The translations under genes were made by a program, and so were the position numbers. A stretch of DNA of 64,000 bases from an uncultured Porphyromonas sp. (GTDB lineage: Bacteria > Bacteroidota > Bacteroidia > Bacteroidales > Porphyromonadaceae). The stretch is taken from the NCBI RefSeq assembly GCF_900538385.1, contig NZ_UWSO01000004.1. The stretch is one strand, 5' to 3'. Positions 6,112 to 63,470 of this stretch are shown here, piece after piece (the stretch's first letter is position 1; each line of letters starts with the position of its first letter). The notes under the pieces are model-generated. The model ran no database searches and was not told the DNA's origin. It saw nothing but the letters and a program-made list of their open reading frames with translations.

Positions 6112-6738
6112 ATGAGCAAATGGCTTAAGCGCATCCTCTACATACTCTTAGCGATACTGCTTTTAGTCGGTATCGTCCTCCTATGGCGTAGCTGCTCCAA
6201 GAGCCAGAGCGAGGACTACAGCGACGTCGTCACGCACGCTATGACCGTCCGCTCGATCGAGGAGATACTCAAGCTCTCTACAGGCGAATGCTATCAAGAG
6301 ATCCCCATGGTCGATACCATCGATGGCATGGTGCTAGCGTACGTCATACAGGCTCGCACCTACATAGACTTCGACATAGACCAGCTCCCCACCCAGTTGC
6401 AGGGTGACACGCTCTATGTACAGCTTCCCCCCGAAGAAGTCACTCCACACGAGATTGGATACAATGTGATCGATGTACATCCGCTACGTCAAGGCTTCAC
6501 GACTAGGACACTCACCTCAGAGCAAGAGAATAGAGCCAAGCGACGCATCCCGCAGAGACTGATCGATGAAGTCTACCGCTCAGGCTACATCCGTAATGCA
6601 CGACAACAGGCCCGCGAAGAGTTGGCACGCTTTCTCTCCATCGCTCACCCTACGGTCATCGTCGTAGACCGTTATCCCGATGGGGTACGAGGCGCCTTCT
6701 TTGCCGATACCGTCTACATAGACCACCGCACACTGTAA
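6112..6738 (+). CDS. hypothetical protein with an N-terminal membrane anchor
   Basis: Hydrophobic N-terminal segment 'ILYILLAILLLVGIVLLW'. No recognisable domain. Followed by a hairpin terminator. Confidence 0.5.
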   Translation: MSKWLKRILYILLAILLLVGIVLLWRSCSKSQSEDYSDVVTHAMTVRSIEEILKLSTGECYQEIPMVDTIDGMVLAYVIQARTYIDFDIDQLPTQLQGDTLYVQLPPEEVTPHEIGYNVIDVHPLRQGFTTRTLTSEQENRAKRRIPQRLIDEVYRSGYIRNARQQAREELARFLSIAHPTVIVVDRYPDGVRGAFFADTVYIDHRTL

Positions 6739-6786
6739 AACAGGCTCTCTATGTAGCTCTTACACTACAAGCTGCAGGTCCTTCAA

Positions 6787-6980
6787 AATCTCCACCGAAG
6801 AAATCGCCAATTCTTCGGTGGAGATTTTTTATTTCCCACGGAGGAAAGAAAAAACTCTTCGGATATATCGTTTGATTCTTCCGAAGTTTCATTTGATTCT
6901 TCCGAAGAATTGTTTGATTCTTCCGAAGAAATAGAGCTTTTCCTCGGAGCTATTCGGAGGTTTCTTCCGAAGAAATCGAG
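6787..6980 (+). repeat. dispersed intergenic repeat, family A copy 1 (terminator-like hairpin plus a structured core with tandem 'tttgattcttccgaag' units)
   Basis: Hairpin 'atctccaccgaagaaatcgccaattcttcggtggagat' plus a T-run, then the core 'ggaggaaagaaaaaactcttcggatatatcgtttgattcttccgaagtttcatttgattcttccgaagaattgtttgattcttccgaag...gagctattcgg'. Close copies sit at 13775, 27671 and 53222. Confidence 0.75.
6788..6831 (+). terminator. rho-independent terminator (hairpin and T6) downstream of ORF 6112..6738; also the 5' module of the family A repeat
   Basis: The perfect inverted repeat atctccaccgaagaa / ttcttcggtggagat is followed by 'tttttt'. Confidence 0.5.
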
Positions 6981-7221
6981 AATTAGAGGTCACTCGTTTC
7001 AGCAAGCCACTCAACTTGCGAGAGCAAGGTTTCACCTTTATTGAACTGCTGTAAGGAAATAATAAGTATATTTGCCTAGCGGCAGTCACAGAAGAGGATT
7101 GTAGCGAATCTTCTCCCCAATAGGCTTCTTCGTAGATCCCATATAGGAGGAGCCAAGTTGCAATGTTCTCTTCTAGCTTCGCAAATCAACACTAACCTAT
7201 TTACTTATTGCATAATAACCT

Positions 7222-11808: not shown

Positions 11809-13749
11809 TTGACCACACTACGTGACATAGAGCTATTGGCTCCCGCCTCCTCGCTAGAGGGCGGTCTGGTGTCGCTCTCGGCGGGTGCCGATGCGGTCTA
11901 TGTGGGTGCTCCTCAGTATGGTGCCAGGAGTGCTGTCGGGGTCTCGCTCGAGGATATACGGCAGCTCTGCGAAGCGGCTCACGCCTATGCCGCACGGGTC
12001 TATGTTGCCCTCAACACGATCCTCACAGATAGCCAATTAGCTCACGCTGTGGAGCTGGCGCATCAACTCTACGAGGCGGGTGCCGACGCGCTCATCATAC
12101 AGGATCTCGGACTACTCACCCAGGAGCTACCGCCTATCCCGCTACACGCTAGCACGCAGTGCCATAACCATTCGCTAGAGCAGCTGCAGATGCTCTCCGA
12201 TCTAGGCTTCGAGCAGGCTGTCTTGCCGCGCGAGTGGAGCTGTCAGGACATTGCAGCGGTGCGCGACAAGACTCCGCTGCGACTGGAGGCGTTCGTTCAT
12301 GGGGCGCTCTGCGTCTCTTACAGTGGTCGCTGCTTTATCTCCGAGGCACTCTCACAGCGCAGTGCCAATAGAGGACAATGCGCTCAGTACTGCCGGATGA
12401 CTTATGATCTCGTTGATGCTCAGGGACAAAAGCTTCGCCAAGGCGAGCACCTCCTCTCTCTGAAAGATCTCAACCGCACCGAGATCATCGAAGAGATGAT
12501 CGATGCGGGCGTCAGCTCCTTCAAGGTCGAGGGGCGACTCAAGGCGATCCCTTACGTGCGCAACGTCATCGCCCACTATCGCCAGGTGCTAGACGATATC
12601 TTGACCCGCCGTAGTGGTGAGTTGCGACGTCCCTCATGGGGAGCTGTGGAGTACACCTTCACGCCGCAGCCTGAGGCGACCTTTGCCCGCCCCTTTACTA
12701 CCTATAATACGCCTCTAGGTTCGCCCATCCCTACCGACAGCATCACACCTTATAGCAGCAAAAGCCTCGGTCAGCCGATCGGCACGGTAACCCAGAGTCG
12801 AGGCAAAGAGCTAGAGATAGCGCTCCTGAGCGACGACATCACGCTCGCTAATGGCGACGGGGTGGTCGCTTACGCTATCGACAAGAAGCTCATCGGAGCA
12901 CAGATCAACCAAGTGACGCCCGCTAGGCGAGCTGGACACTATCGTCTGCGTCTCTCCCAAGCGATCGAGCTACCGCAGGGGTCGACGCTCTGGCGCAACC
13001 TCAACCATCTCCTAGAGGCTCAGCTCCTACGCCCCGATGCCTCTACCCGCACCATACCGGTGTCGCTACATTTGGAGGCAATGCCCGACCGGCTCGCACT
13101 ACAGATGCAACTCTCGGAGGCTCCCGATCTGTCGGTCACACGTAGCAGATCGGTCACGCTAGAGCCTGCACAGCGAGACAATACGGCTCACGTAGAGCGC
13201 ACGCTCCGCAAGCTCGGCGACACGCCATACCGAGCTCAAGAGGTTACCATAAAGCTAGACGGACTCTTCGTCCCGCCTTCAATCGTTGCTGAGCTGCGAC
13301 GAGAGCTCTCGGAGGAGCTGCAGCGTCAATGTCTTGCTCTAGCACTACAATGCAGAGATACCATCGGCAAGCCCCTACAGCAGAAGCGCATCGATCGGCT
13401 CCGCACACCAGACCCTACGGCACGTCAGCGGTATGGTCTGCCCGACACGCTAGACTTCACCTACAATGTAGCCAATGAGTCGGCACGTCAACTCTATCAC
13501 CAGCTAGGAGTCTCTGGGAGGATCGAACCCGCCTTGGAGGTAGAGAGTCCCGAACGCGTGATCCCCGTGATGTTTACCCGTCACTGTCTGCTACATCAGC
13601 TCGGCTACTGCACACGGACAGGGCGCAAGCCACCCTTTGCGCTGCCACTCTATCTAGTCCGTGGACGAGACCGTCTGCGTGTCGAGAACGACTGTCGCCA
13701 CTGCATGATGACCCTATGGCTAGATCCCTCCCCTCTAACTAACTTCTGA
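11809..13749 (+). CDS. peptidase U32 family protein (collagenase-like, long form with C-terminal extension)
   Basis: The N-terminus 'ELLAPASSLEGG...ADAVYVGAPQYGARS' is typical of U32. It has a TTG start in the ORF track. Confidence 0.8.
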   Translation: MTTLRDIELLAPASSLEGGLVSLSAGADAVYVGAPQYGARSAVGVSLEDIRQLCEAAHAYAARVYVALNTILTDSQLAHAVELAHQLYEAGADALIIQDLGLLTQELPPIPLHASTQCHNHSLEQLQMLSDLGFEQAVLPREWSCQDIAAVRDKTPLRLEAFVHGALCVSYSGRCFISEALSQRSANRGQCAQYCRMTYDLVDAQGQKLRQGEHLLSLKDLNRTEIIEEMIDAGVSSFKVEGRLKAIPYVRNVIAHYRQVLDDILTRRSGELRRPSWGAVEYTFTPQPEATFARPFTTYNTPLGSPIPTDSITPYSSKSLGQPIGTVTQSRGKELEIALLSDDITLANGDGVVAYAIDKKLIGAQINQVTPARRAGHYRLRLSQAIELPQGSTLWRNLNHLLEAQLLRPDASTRTIPVSLHLEAMPDRLALQMQLSEAPDLSVTRSRSVTLEPAQRDNTAHVERTLRKLGDTPYRAQEVTIKLDGLFVPPSIVAELRRELSEELQRQCLALALQCRDTIGKPLQQKRIDRLRTPDPTARQRYGLPDTLDFTYNVANESARQLYHQLGVSGRIEPALEVESPERVIPVMFTRHCLLHQLGYCTRTGRKPPFALPLYLVRGRDRLRVENDCRHCMMTLWLDPSPLTNF

Positions 13750-13774
13750 TTTCTAATCTCTAACCTCTACACCG

Positions 13775-13821
13775 ATATCTCCGTGGAAATTTCGAAATCT
13801 CCACGGAGATATTTTCGTTTT
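13775..13821 (+). terminator. rho-independent terminator after the U32 peptidase gene (the same hairpin as the repeat's 5' module)
   Basis: Inverted repeat atatctccgtgg...ccacggagatat followed by 'tttcgttttt'. Confidence 0.5.
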
Positions 13822-13965
13822 TCTCTGGAGGAAAGAAAAATTTCTTCGGACATATCATTCGATTCTTCCGAAGTTTCATTTGATACTTCCGAAGAATTTT
13901 TTCTTTCCTCCCGAAGGAATTCCGATTTTCTCGGGAGCTATTTGGGGAATTCCTCGGGAGGAACC
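13775..13965 (+). repeat. family A repeat copy 2 (hairpin and T-run then the conserved core)
   Basis: Hairpin 'atatctccgtggaaatttcgaaatctccacggagatat' plus a T-run, then 'ggaggaaagaaaaatttcttcggacatatcattcgattcttccgaagtttcatttgatacttccgaagaatt...gagctatttgg'. The ORF-track ORF 13783..14007 is an artefact of this repeat. Confidence 0.75.
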
Positions 13966-14168
13966 CGAATCATCGGAGAGGTAGGCGTAATCAGTGAGGA
14001 TTTGTAGCCACCGTGTAGCGATACTCGTACCGTGTATCATGTGTAGCTCCTAGCAAACTGATTATAATGCGTCAGCCTTGTATATGTCCTGTACCTCTTT
14101 GCGAGTTTGAGGGGAAATAACTACCTTAGCGAGTAGATAACAACATATTTTACATAATAACAATCCAT

Positions 14169-27503: not shown

Positions 27504-27546
27504 AATCTACCAATGAAAAATAGACTTGGCACAAAGATACGAAAAA

Positions 27547-27660
27547 GAGATTAGAGACTAGAAATTAGAGATTAGAAGACTTTCTCTAGGAGCAGTAGTA
27601 TTTCCTAGGAGCGCTAGAGGTACTAGAAACACTAGCACCACTAGAAGACCTAGTATTCCC
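27547..27660. repeat. family C tag-rich low-complexity repeat ('ttagag/ttagaa' and 'ctaggag' units)
   Basis: 'gagattagagactagaaattagagattagaagac...ctaggagcagtagtatttcctaggagcgctagaggtactagaaacactagcaccactagaagacctag'. Related strings lie at 13750..13770 (reverse orientation) and 63181..63300. Confidence 0.45.
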
Positions 27661-27670
27661 ATCCAACAGC

Positions 27671-27860
27671 TCTCCACCGAGGAAATCCGAATTTCTTCGG
27701 TGGAGTTTTTTCCTTCCCCAGTGAAGAACGAAAAAATTCTTCGGACTTATCATTTCATTCTTCCGAAGTTTCATTTGATTCCTCCGAAGAATTTTTCATT
27801 TCTTCCGTGGAGAATTTTCATTTTCCAGCGAACTATTTGGTGTTTTCTTCGGACGCACTG
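27671..27860 (+). repeat. family A repeat copy 3
   Basis: Hairpin 'ctccaccgaggaaatccgaatttcttcggtggag' plus T6, then 'gaagaacgaaaaaattcttcggacttatcatttcattcttccgaagtttcatttgattcctccgaagaattttt...gaactatttgg'. No co-directional gene lies upstream, so the hairpin belongs to the element rather than serving as a gene's terminator. Confidence 0.75.
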
Positions 27861-27966
27861 ACGAGTAAGTCCACCGATATTGTTTCGAGCAGTTGACTTT
27901 ACAGCAGCTTTGTACGAGGCATTAATCTGCACATCAATGTTTTTTGTACTTTTGTACGAATCAATC

Positions 27967-29916: not shown

Positions 29917-29934
29917 CGTGTAACAACTTGACGT

Positions 29935-30073
29935 GTAACCCGCTGTAGGGACGCACGGTCTGTGCGTCCGTTGTATCAAAGGTTACAGCATCAAGATTGT
30001 TATCCGTTTTGGCTGGTTCGACAACGGACGCCATCCCACTAGACACGAGCCGAGAGTCCCTACAGCGGGTTAC
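29935..30073. repeat. family B palindromic MITE-like element copy 1
   Basis: Terminal inverted repeats gtaacccgctgtaggga / tccctacagcgggttac flank the internal palindromes gacgcacggtctgtgcgtc and tccgttg...caacgga. Copies lie at 52929, 55166 and 63311. Confidence 0.75.
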
Positions 30074-30107
30074 TCGTCTCATCAAGCCACACGGCTTCAT
30101 CTAGAAA

Positions 30108-37640: not shown

Positions 37641-37766
37641 TTCCATTTCCTCCGGAGGAATCGAAAAGTTCCTCCCTTGGAACTAAAAAGTTCCTCCCTT
37701 GGAACTCGAAAGTTCCTGCCTTGGAACTAAAAAGTTCCAAGAGGGGAACCATTTTTGGAACTCGTA
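37641..37766 (+). repeat. tandem array of ~20-nt hairpin units, family A-like variant
   Basis: The palindrome 'ttcctccggaggaa' is followed by 3.5 copies of 'aaaagttcctcccttggaact', each unit an agttcc/ggaact inverted repeat. Confidence 0.6.
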
Positions 37767-52908: not shown

Positions 52909-52928
52909 CGCCGCCGACCGCACCGACC

Positions 52929-53150
52929 GTGAAACCCGCTGTGCGGACGCACGGGGCGTGTAAACCTCATCGACCAACCCACGTCGCCTTGTAGGGACGC
53001 TCGGTCTGAGCGTCCGTTGTATCAAAGCGAGACGTGTAACGATTTGTAGGGACGCTCGGTCTGAGCGTCCGTTGTGTCAAATGTTACAGCGTCATGGTTT
53101 TAACGGAAACGGACGCACAGACCGTGCGTCCCTACAGGAGTCGTTTCCGT
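52929..53150. repeat. family B palindromic element copy 2 (contains a tandem internal duplication)
   Basis: 'gtagggacgctcggtctgagcgtccgttgt' occurs twice in tandem. It closes with 'acggacgcacagaccgtgcgtccctacagg', the reverse complement of the family B TIR. Confidence 0.7.
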
Positions 53151-53221
53151 GGTTCCGCACACCAGACTACAGGTTTCACCACTCGTCGTCCCGACGACTT
53201 CCCGATTCCTCTGGAACTATT

Positions 53222-53410
53222 TTGGGATTTCTTCCGTGGATATTTTTTATTTCCCAGGGAGGAAAGGAAAAATTCTTCGGACTTATCGTTTGATTCTTCC
53301 GAAGTATCATTTGATTCTTCCGAGGAAATTTTTCTTGCCCTCGTGGAAAATCAAAAATATCCCCATGGAGAATCGAAAATATCCACCGAGGCATCCCGAA
53401 GACCCTCGTG
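53222..53410 (+). repeat. family A repeat copy 4
   Basis: 'gatttcttccgtggatattttttatttcccagggaggaaaggaaaaattcttcggacttatcgtttgattcttccgaagtatcatttgattcttccgagg...'. Artefactual ORFs 53072..53522 lie inside it. Confidence 0.75.
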
Positions 53411-53514
53411 CGTTACGGACTTGCTAGCTGTTGAGAGACTATGTGTAGAGGCTGTTTTTGATCAAAATTCCATCGGGCGAAATGTTAACGATCGATTTTG
53501 TCAAAAAGAAAACC

Positions 53515-53561
53515 GATTTTGACAAACGGGGGGGGGGGATTTTACATACCTTTGCATCAAA
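53515..53561 (+). promoter_or_regulatory. Bacteroidetes-type promoter (-33 TTTG, G11 spacer, -7 TACCTTTG) of the Mfa-like pilus operon
   Basis: 'cgaTTTGacaaacG11attttacaTACCTTTGcatc'. The -7 box is 46 nt upstream of the ATG at 53600. Confidence 0.45.
53528..53538. repeat. homopolymeric G11 tract inside the promoter spacer of the type V pilus operon
   Basis: 'caaac ggggggggggg attttacatacctttg'. It lies between a TTTG at 53518 and the -7 box at 53547. Confidence 0.9.
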
Positions 53562-55165: not shown

Positions 55166-55333
55166 GAGACGTGTAACCCGCTGTAGGGACGTACGAGACG
55201 TGTAACGATTTGTAGGGACGCTCGGTCTGAGCGTCCGTTGCATCAAAGGTTACAGCGTCAAGGATTTAACGAGAACGGACGCACAGACCGTGCGTCCCTA
55301 CAAAGGGTTACACGTTTGAGCGGGTTACACGTC
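55166..55333. repeat. family B palindromic element copy 3
   Basis: The outer TIR gacgtgtaacccgct / agcgggttacacgtc is perfect. The internal 'gtagggacgctcggtctgagcgtccgttg' and 'acggacgcacagaccgtgcgtccctaca' match the family. Confidence 0.75.
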
Positions 55334-63169: not shown

Positions 63170-63180
63170 ATCTTTTAGAA

Positions 63181-63300
63181 ATTAGAAGTTAGAGGTTAGT
63201 GGTCAGAGGCACTGGTACTCCTAGGAGTGCTGGTGCCTCTGCTGGTGTTAGAGCTATCGGAGGTAATCAGAGGTATCGGAGGTAATCAGAGCTATCGGAA
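63181..63300. repeat. family C tag-rich low-complexity and tandem repeats with an imperfect long hairpin
   Basis: 'agaaattagaagttagaggttagtggtcagaggcactggtactcctaggagtgctggtgcctctg' forms a hairpin. It is followed by 2.5 tandem copies of 'tatcggaggtaatcagagg'. Confidence 0.45.
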
Positions 63301-63310
63301 CGAATCGGAG

Positions 63311-63470
63311 CGAGACGTGTAACTATCACGTCGCCCTGTAGGGACGCACGGTCTGTGCGTCCGTTGTCGAACAACGAAACGTGCAGCCGATCGTTCTGAC
63401 AGCTTGATGCCGTAACCTTTAACGGGGACGGACGCAATCCCACTAGACACCAGCCGTGCGTCCCTACAAG
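63311..63470. repeat. family B palindromic element copy 4
   Basis: 'ctgtagggacgcacggtctgtgcgtccgttg...gacgcaatcccactagacaccagccgtgcgtccctacaagg'. It shares the internal 'atcccactagacac' with copy 1. Confidence 0.75.

Follow-up and report, generated by a model that had tools for sequence, protein, structure and literature searches.

An intergenic repeat family of uenonis-group Porphyromonas, probably an ISAs1-type transposable element with an internal minisatellite

In our study, a 64,000-nt stretch of DNA from an uncultured Porphyromonas sp. (contig NZ_UWSO01000004.1; hereafter the window) was found to contain copies of a structured intergenic repeat, here called family A. Family A is a dispersed, non-coding repeat family of the Porphyromonas uenonis group. 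It is probably an ISAs1-type MITE (miniature inverted-repeat transposable element) with an internal minisatellite, in which a 5' hairpin (H1) terminates the adjacent upstream gene and the remainder is baggage. Family A is placed among the ISAs1-type MITEs because it is short, non-coding and dispersed, has inverted repeats, 10-bp target duplications and empty sites, and has ends that match those of an ISAs1-family insertion sequence (IS) of the lineage. The same evidence bears out the proposal of an earlier note on this DNA that the repeat was a mobile module.

The element would be moved in trans by an ISAs1-family transposase, which would make the 10-bp target duplications. The copies are stably inherited between close strains and are probably reshuffled by recombination or gene conversion between copies. 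The likeliest effect on the host would be that H1 and the following T-run end transcription of the adjacent upstream gene, and the remaining core would be structural ballast, possibly needed for propagation.

Distribution, terminal repeats and the ISAs1 parent

A genome collection was scanned with the 18-base pattern ATTCTTCCGAAGNNNNNTTTGAT, which gave at least 76 loci. Among the matches listed, 59 were from Porphyromonas, with at least 14 in P. uenonis DSM 23387 and at least 30 in the metagenome-assembled genome (MAG) MGYG-HGUT-03897; four other uncultured species account for the remainder. The remaining 17 listed loci were from unrelated taxa, which is approximately the number expected by chance for an 18-base pattern in the collection, and the profile search did not find the element in these 17 loci. 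A further 113 loci came from metagenomes, which were scanned with a stricter pattern; the loci with source labels were from human-gut assemblies, and the window DNA itself matches a human-gut metagenome contig. The profile search over all loci (designated by L numbers) gave at least 221 family-A copies at not fewer than ~121 distinct sites, obtained by clustering the copies by flanking sequence. The genome-wide search for the core that the earlier note had suggested has thus revealed a high-copy family in uenonis-group Porphyromonas. No matches to the family-A core were found in viral contigs. The earlier note did not recognise the repeat as a described element, and our full-text searches of a library of papers likewise found no published description of family A.

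When the alignment was extended outward, conserved flanks were found beyond the core, and these were mutually inverted repeats. Ten copies were bounded by 19-bp terminal inverted repeats, CAGGGCTGACGCATTATAA...TTATAATGCGTCAGCCCTG (CAGGGCTGACGCA...TGCGTCAGCCCTG), with a length of 302-378 nt; approximately one-sixth of the copies lie within such a ~360-nt element. Perfect 10-bp target duplications were present in four of the ten full copies, namely GCGTGAGGAG in L032, AAGGGAGGAA in L061, ACCGCTCACA in L024 and ACCTCCTTCG in L041, and the full copy of L020 had a duplication matching at 9 of 10 positions. At the orthologous position in L035 the L024 insertion is absent and the target is present as a single copy, and a ~330-nt insertion of L044 is missing at the orthologous site of L029. 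In the window, only copy 13775 contained a terminal inverted repeat (one, at 14062-14080); the other three copies had none, and no target duplication was found at the window copies.

A tblastn search of all retrieved DNA with the E. coli H-repeat/ISAs1-type transposase YhhI gave one match, at the cut edge of L044 (E 1e-4). The matching open reading frame (ORF) corresponds to the ISAs1 family transposase model of NCBIfam (NF033564; E = 8e-14 over positions 270-314, the last 45 of the 314 in the profile), and an identical 19-bp MITE end (L044 4967-4985) directly adjoins its 3' end. The segment 4967-5214 of L044 is the end of an ISAs1-family IS; it comprises the 19-bp repeat and the 77 final codons of the transposase gene, and a family-A copy lies ~2.5 kb away. 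Since this 19-bp end adjoins an ISAs1-family transposase ORF, an autonomous ISAs1-family IS with matching ends exists in the lineage. The parent IS was also sought in the loci as paired inverted repeats 0.7-2.5 kb apart, and no convincing pair was found.

Members of the ISAs1 family have inverted repeats of 14-22 bp starting with CAGGG and a 10-bp direct repeat (PMC11946415). ISArsp11 contains the left repeat CAGGGCTGATGCAAAGTCG (CAGGGCTGATGCA...) and a 10-bp direct repeat (PMC6305408). The full copies of family A likewise have CAGGG-starting inverted repeats and a direct repeat of ~10 bp, in common with ISAs1, the E. coli H-repeat/ISEc1 and ISArsp11, and 12 of 13 bases of the ISArsp11 left repeat are identical to the family-A repeat. 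Family A differs from these insertion sequences in being protein-less and in having only the 19-bp ends in common with them, as a non-autonomous derivative.

The MITE ends were also found with other contents. L192 7992-8084 (IMGVR_UViG_3300045988_164258, a predicted viral contig) is a 93-nt mini-MITE with two ISAs1-type repeats and short leader and tail ends, but no core, and in L186 the ends were present with a different 22-nt array. L192 shows that the MITE ends can travel without the minisatellite, and that they may ride on phage DNA.

Anatomy of the element and its copies in the window

The full element (~360 nt) contained the 19-bp repeat, followed by a leader of ~25 nt, a quasi-palindromic core of ~195 nt, a tail of ~120 nt and the second repeat. 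Copy classes were assigned against a full-element model of 355 positions. The full class covers model positions 1-355, the leader-plus-core class covers 1 to ~228, and the class with core, tail and right repeat, to which copy 13775 of the window belongs, covers 36-355. The largest class is core-only (~30-46 to ~200-240) and includes the other three copies of the window. In addition, right-hand ends are spread continuously over model positions 259-330.

The core consists of approximately nine units of 21-22 nt, each a GC-rich quasi-palindrome with an A/T-rich spacer. The two outermost units of each side make hairpins, H1 at the 5' side and a weaker one at the 3' side. From 5' to 3' the core contained H1 and a T-run, the near-invariant centre TTCTTCGGA-N12-(TTCTTCCGAAG-N10)2-3, and mirror-image units of 21-22 nt; the box GGAGGAAAG-A5-6-TTCTTCGGA pairs across the centre with TCCGAAGAA-T6-CTTTCCTCC. 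In an alignment of 41 copies the centre TTCTTCGGACTTATCATTTGATTCTTCCGAAGTTTCATTTGATTCTTCCGAAGAA was near-invariant, and the outer units varied among CCACCGAGG, CCACGTGG, CCTAGG and CCCGAGG types.

Four close copies of ~195 nt each, all on the plus strand, and one related array were present in the window. The features are as follows, with the copies named by their approximate starts.

6781..6981, plus strand: copy 6787, core-only, full-MITE model positions 30-228
6785..6828, plus strand: H1 hairpin of copy 6787, 18 pairs followed by TTATTT; terminator-like, the top terminator-like match
6854..6930, plus strand: centre of copy 6787, a TCTTCGGA box followed by three 21-nt units (..TTTGATTCTTCCGAAG), by sequence and Tandem Repeats Finder (TRF)
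13771..13969, plus strand: core of copy 13775, by profile search; H1 at ~13774-13812
13970..14061, plus strand: MITE tail segment of copy 13775, homologous to the tail of full-length elements; model positions 36-354
14062..14080, plus strand: right terminal inverted repeat of copy 13775, TTATAATGCGTCAGCCTTG, an ISAs1-type end; left repeat absent
27666..27864, plus strand: copy 27671, core-only, in a divergent intergenic region, by profile search
27672-27705, plus strand: H1 hairpin of copy 27671, 15 pairs followed by TTTTTT, by terminator-like scan
37641..37766, minus strand: related 22-nt array, GTTCC-N6-GGAAC hairpin units with A/T spacers; weak family match
53200..53400, plus strand: copy 53222, 5'-truncated core without the left arm of H1, model positions 32-199

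A repeat search of the window gave one direct-repeat family of four copies (6789-6925, 13776-13912, 27671-27807 and 53207-53343) with an identity of 71-83%, and the search with a four-copy profile placed them at 6787-6981, 13771-13969, 27666-27864 and 53214-53400. The profile scores were 181-197 bits on the plus strand against 64-92 bits on the minus strand; since both strands score, the element is quasi-palindromic, with an orientation that is still definable. The TTCTTCCGAAG motif was found 16 times in the window at one mismatch or fewer, against 0.94 expected. By TRF, each of the four copies contains a 21-nt array, and an array of 22-nt units lies at 37657-37749. The units of the 37641 array, read on the minus strand, contain a hairpin followed by TTTT, and the array matches the family-A profile weakly (22 bits) on the opposite strand. 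It is considered to be related to family A because L089 joins GTTCCAAGGGAGGAAC units of the 37641 type to a family-A centre; close counterparts of the array were found in P. uenonis (L020) and in one MAG (L022).

The earlier description of four close copies plus a related array in the window is thus upheld by the repeat search, the profile, TRF and L089, and a MAFFT alignment of the four copies shows the sequence blocks that it listed to be common to the copies. Several of its details need correction. The copies were all said to lie on the plus strand, which holds for the four close copies and not for the 37641 array. A hairpin and a 'gctatttgg' tail had been assigned to each close copy, and both are missing from copy 53222, which has neither the left hairpin arm nor the tail. 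The aattcttcgga and tccgaagaatt segments, described as exact reverse complements, are exact only in copy 27671, with one mismatch each in copies 6787 and 13775. The copies had been reported to contain no ATG; this is correct for the plus strand of four intervals, and one ATG is present at 53365. Copy 13775 does not end at 13965 but continues to 14080, with the tail and the right repeat. The downstream surface genes were confirmed as Serpin, Big_2, Flg_new_2/LRR, Fimbrillin_C and BspA-type LRR_5.

Copy 6787 begins 48 nt past the stop of a DUF4230 gene (6112-6738), and 241 nt separate its end from the ATG of the serpin gene (7222). The H1 of copy 13775, in which a 13-bp stem encloses a loop of 12 nt and is followed by a T-rich tail, lies 25 nt past the stop of a U32 peptidase gene (11809-13749); in the same copy a near-perfect long-range stem of 24 bp is formed by GGAGGAAAGAAAAATTTCTTCGGA and TCCGAAGAATTTTTTCTTTCCTCC. 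Copy 53222 lies directly 3' of another palindromic repeat family (52926-53140).

The elements are 195-378 nt long, and no conserved ORF was found on either strand of the family-A copies. A minus-strand mini-ORF (MKLRKNQ...) was considered and rejected, as it was present in approximately half of the copies with a variable length and was absent from copies 6787 and 13775. ORFs of 80-140 aa cross family-A copies at window 53094-53522 and in several loci, such as L037 4386-4700 and L050 7438-7797. Spurious ORFs of this kind are sometimes called by annotation pipelines and could be listed as hypothetical proteins; they are not conserved between copies.

Two chimeric copies were found, in L031 (5150-5540) and L171 (1380-1830). 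In both, the left arm and centre read as a core's 3' half in reverse complement, and this inverted part leads into a 3' half, a tail and a right repeat of normal form. In L171, a further partial core lies directly after the right repeat, with a ~33-nt duplication. As their origin, these forms suggest nested insertion, or else an inversion or template switch between the element's inverted arms.

The H1 hairpin, folding and the origin of the core

By sequence, H1 has the features of an intrinsic terminator, except in copy 53222, which is without the hairpin, and the H1 hairpins of copies 6787 and 27671 were the top terminator-like matches of their regions. H1 was called terminator-like when its folding energy was -15 kcal/mol or lower and at least five T were present in the next 10 nt. 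At unique sites, such an H1 was present in 13 of the 19 copies located 120 nt or less downstream of a co-directional gene, compared with 8 of the 46 others (Fisher p = 2.4e-4). The terminator-like character of the hairpin, noted earlier, therefore holds for H1 near gene 3' ends, and we infer that H1 is an intrinsic terminator of the upstream gene and is retained as such. In the window, H1 would be predicted to terminate the DUF4230 gene at copy 6787 and the U32 peptidase gene at copy 13775. The median energy of H1 was -20.3 kcal/mol in core-only copies and -11.2 kcal/mol in repeat-bearing copies (p = 6e-5), and the ratio of copies with to copies without a co-directional gene upstream was 22:17 in the former and 7:19 in the latter (p = 0.024). 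Symmetrical inward terminators at both ends were also considered and were rejected, because they were found in only a few copies (L011, L043) and most 3' hairpins had no preceding A-run.

The copies fold strongly. Copy 13775, folded as RNA, gave -83.1 kcal/mol (z = -7.3 against shuffles), and copy 6787, folded as DNA, gave -43.7 kcal/mol (z = -6.4). The covariation check on the stem proposed in the earlier note was carried out by counting pairs on a hand-defined H1 and long stem taken from the per-sequence folds. Paired cells amounted to 77.8%, against 40-58% in slid controls, and doubly changed cells numbered 93, against 64.6 +/- 6.7 in shuffles (none of 500 reached this number) and 17-48 in slid controls. 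Compensatory changes were found in 12 of the 16 H1 pairs and in 8 of the 22 long-stem pairs. The sequence alignment is not in structural register, and for this reason a global RNAalifold consensus contained no more than a trivial hairpin of 9 pairs. The inverted-repeat structure is thus maintained, and these counts do not establish that it acts as RNA.

The copies of the window are stable between close relatives. All four were found at the same sites in contigs of 96-99% identity (L150, L125, L100, L092, L115). These came from the metagenome scan, as no orthologous flanks were shared by the window and the genome-scan loci. In L112, a relative of ~87% identity, only H1 and the T-run remain after the DUF4230 gene, and synteny breaks within the element, a pattern that agrees equally with retention of the terminator and with recombination at the copies. 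In L125, clustered substitutions were found in copy 13775 within near-identical surrounding DNA, which suggests gene conversion between copies.

The core-only copies may have arisen by decay or truncation of full MITEs, a view supported by the right-end continuum and the chimeric forms. Several observations weigh against this origin and against the MITE reading as a whole. Inverted repeats and target duplications are both lacking in three of the four window copies and in approximately half of all copies, and the core-only copies end at recurrent model positions (~30-46 and 220-240), for which plain decay is not an obvious explanation; the core may be a separate entity captured by the MITE. The parent IS was seen as one end only (L044 is cut there), in a related genome and not in that of the window. 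A core-less mini-MITE exists (L192), and copy 27671 has a strong H1 but no gene to terminate; it lies in a divergent intergenic region without a co-directional upstream gene, as the earlier note had stated. The centre is far better conserved than the periphery, which is unusual for baggage. Part of this central conservation is ascertainment, since the scan patterns fall in the centre; the conserved positions nevertheless reach past the first pattern, and copies found by the profile only keep the centre too.

The ~195-nt core could be an independent repeat that spread on its own, either as a hairpin-ended element moved without duplications by another enzyme or by recombination, and was captured later between ISAs1-type MITE ends. 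We regard this as a possible but rather unlikely origin. It agrees with the fact that core-only copies are the majority and have recurrent boundaries, with the stronger H1 of these copies, with the MITE ends that lack the core (L192) or hold other 22-nt arrays (L186), and with the existence of leader-plus-core and core-plus-tail chimeras. However, no target duplication, conserved target or terminal signature was found at the core-only ends, no candidate enzyme is known, the continuum of right-hand ends (259-330) is expected from decay or truncation of the tail, and the only insertions backed by duplications involve ISAs1-type ends.

It is improbable, in our judgement, that the core is a host-maintained module acting at the DNA level independently of orientation. 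Its quasi-palindromic sites (TTCTTC-S-GAAGAA and variants such as CCACGTGG and CCTAGG), phased every 21-22 bp with A/T-rich spacers, would be bound by a dimeric or nucleoid protein, or would form bent or cruciform DNA. The period of 21-22 bp, equal to two helical turns, is kept over ~9 units, the palindromes have a 1-nt centre and are alone incapable of forming RNA hairpins, the ~55-nt centre is near-invariant across species with variable flanks, and such a module would tolerate the element's free orientation. Against this, no binding protein is known or predicted, the conservation of the centre is equally explained if propagation needs it under a master-copy model, and between strains of 96% identity the divergence of the element approximates that of the surrounding DNA. 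The distance to promoters is also inconsistent (interquartile range to the downstream start, 137-257 nt). A host-domesticated core under selection, with the terminator hairpin and the phased palindromes round the ~55-nt centre either protein-bound or expressed as a small RNA (sRNA), could modulate envelope and secreted-gene neighbours, with the ISAs1-type MITE as one vehicle; this too we hold to be doubtful.

Gene context, related elements and neighbouring repeats

The earlier note had proposed a tabulation of orientation relative to the downstream genes, and this was made for 68 deduplicated sites with both flanking genes called. Divergent intergenic regions accounted for 24 sites, followed by 22 tandem sites with the element forward, 13 tandem sites with the element reverse and 9 convergent intergenic sites. 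Only the tandem sites are informative for orientation, and their split of 22 forward to 13 reverse is not significant; across sites, the orientation is thus not significantly biased relative to genes. An apparent bias of 46:22 towards the co-directional downstream gene was rejected, as it stems from the preference for divergent over convergent regions. Opposite orientations of the element were found at orthologous sites of related species (L037/L166 and L057/L033), and in the L031 and L171 chimeras the centre and left arm run opposite to the tail. The fixed orientation expected of a cis-regulatory leader or sRNA was therefore not found.

Signal peptides were called by a crude heuristic, by which half of all window genes were positive. 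Signal-peptide genes made up 48% of the genes facing the element by their 5' end, 46% of the flanking genes not facing it and 34% of the other genes of the loci (p = 0.009). The tabulation of gene classes thus agrees with the earlier note in that secreted neighbours are mildly enriched, but the enrichment lies on either side of the element; it is a mild neighbourhood effect and not a property of the downstream gene.

A TAnnTTTG motif (the Bacteroidetes -7 box) is located between the element and the ATG at four of the five window copies (~7066, 27946, 53547 and 37884), the exception being 13775, and this placement suggests that at those four copies the element lies upstream of the promoter and not in the leader. 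A canonical Bacteroidetes promoter (TTTG ... TAnnTTTG) was not seen in the core on either strand when the consensus was read; a sigma-70 promoter scan is uninformative for this phylum. At the Rfam 15 gathering threshold, only two tRNAs passed in the window. The best Rfam match on the element was 21.6 bits against a threshold of 90, and permissive thresholds also gave nothing.

It is therefore very improbable that family A is a recruited regulatory RNA (a terminator-insulator with a structured 5' leader, or an sRNA family) acting in cis on the downstream secreted or surface gene, as the earlier note had favoured: all five window copies face a downstream signal-peptide gene, the folding is strong, the stems covary and the centre is well conserved, but the tandem split is not significant and nine sites are convergent, the element occurs in opposite orientations at orthologous sites and with its centre inverted, the signal-peptide enrichment is mild and equal for non-facing genes, a TAnnTTTG box follows the element at all window copies except 13775, no Rfam family matches, and covariation of inverted repeats can arise at the DNA level.

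MITEs bearing a minisatellite are already known from BrickBuilt, a MITE of P. gingivalis and P. gulae (Klein et al. 2015, PMC4596501), and family A is a further, separate case. Both belong to the genus Porphyromonas and are strictly intergenic with a limited host range (PMC4596501). Both contain a spacerless tandem minisatellite of ~22-23 nt between a leader and a tail with short terminal inverted repeats, both repeats are kept by a minority of copies, with many leader-only, tail-only or repeat-only copies, and the neighbouring genes often encode secreted proteins or proteins of the type IX secretion system (T9SS). The BrickBuilt unit is AGACCATAGTATCCTCTCATATG whereas that of family A is TTTCATTTGATTCTTCCGAAG, and the two sequences are unrelated. 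BrickBuilt contains IS5-like repeats (GAGACCTTCGCA) with duplications of 2-5 bp or irregular ones, whereas family A contains ISAs1-like repeats (CAGGGCTGACGCATTATAA) with 10-bp duplications; BrickBuilt arrays reach ~23 units, whereas family A has 2-3 conserved units in a quasi-palindromic frame with a terminator-like hairpin. Homology of family A to BrickBuilt was rejected, since the unit and the inverted repeats are dissimilar and only the architecture is common.

BOX of Streptococcus pneumoniae and Correia/NEMIS of Neisseria are likewise modular intergenic repeats, with a 5' module, variable internal units and a complementary 3' module. They form long stem-loops, which can give neighbouring genes terminators, promoters or processing sites. 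Their sequences and hosts are unrelated to those of family A, and Correia makes TA duplications; BOX is not known to have defined inverted repeats, duplications or a transposase.

Our results provide a name and a mechanism for a repeat of which uenonis-group Porphyromonas from gut and clinical sources have copies in dozens of intergenic regions in each genome, and the arrangement of a minisatellite inside a MITE recurs in the genus with another transposase family (ISAs1, not IS5). The copies are likely to serve as terminators, to act as recombination breakpoints (synteny breaks in the element) and to cause assembly gaps. With its conserved centre and covarying hairpins, family A is a compact test case for the cis requirements of MITEs and for the exaptation of hairpins as terminators.

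A heptamer microsatellite, (TCTAAYY)n, with the reverse complement TTAGAGG, was found nine times in the window against 0.86 expected. It often adjoins family-A copies and MITE junctions (L044/L029, L011, L013, L008); after copy 6787, one unit is present in the window and five in L150. The tract may act as a substrate for recombination or as a favoured target. Its tracts in the window are as follows.

13745..13770, plus strand: (TCTAAYY)n tract adjoining copy 13775
27546-27576, minus strand: (TCTAAYY)n tract near copy 27671
63175-63200, minus strand: (TCTAAYY)n tract

A second, unrelated dispersed repeat family was found in the window at 29930-30091, 52926-53140, 55168-55315 and 63327-63470. 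It contained the palindrome TGTAGGGACGCACGGTCTGTGCGTCCGTT flanked by GACGTGTAAC.../...GTTACACGTC. Its copies follow gene 3' ends and face either way, often with two of them side by side as an inverted pair. One of its clusters lies directly upstream of copy 53222, and window 52981-53152 matches L014 at 81%. This family looks like a REP/BIME or a MITE.

A run of 11 G was present at 53528-53538, approximately 10 nt upstream of a TAccTTTG -7-like box, before the fimbrillin gene (ATG 53600); at this run, L115, the orthologous contig, reads G10 and then TA. The G-run is a candidate tract for slipped-strand phase variation of the major fimbrial subunit.

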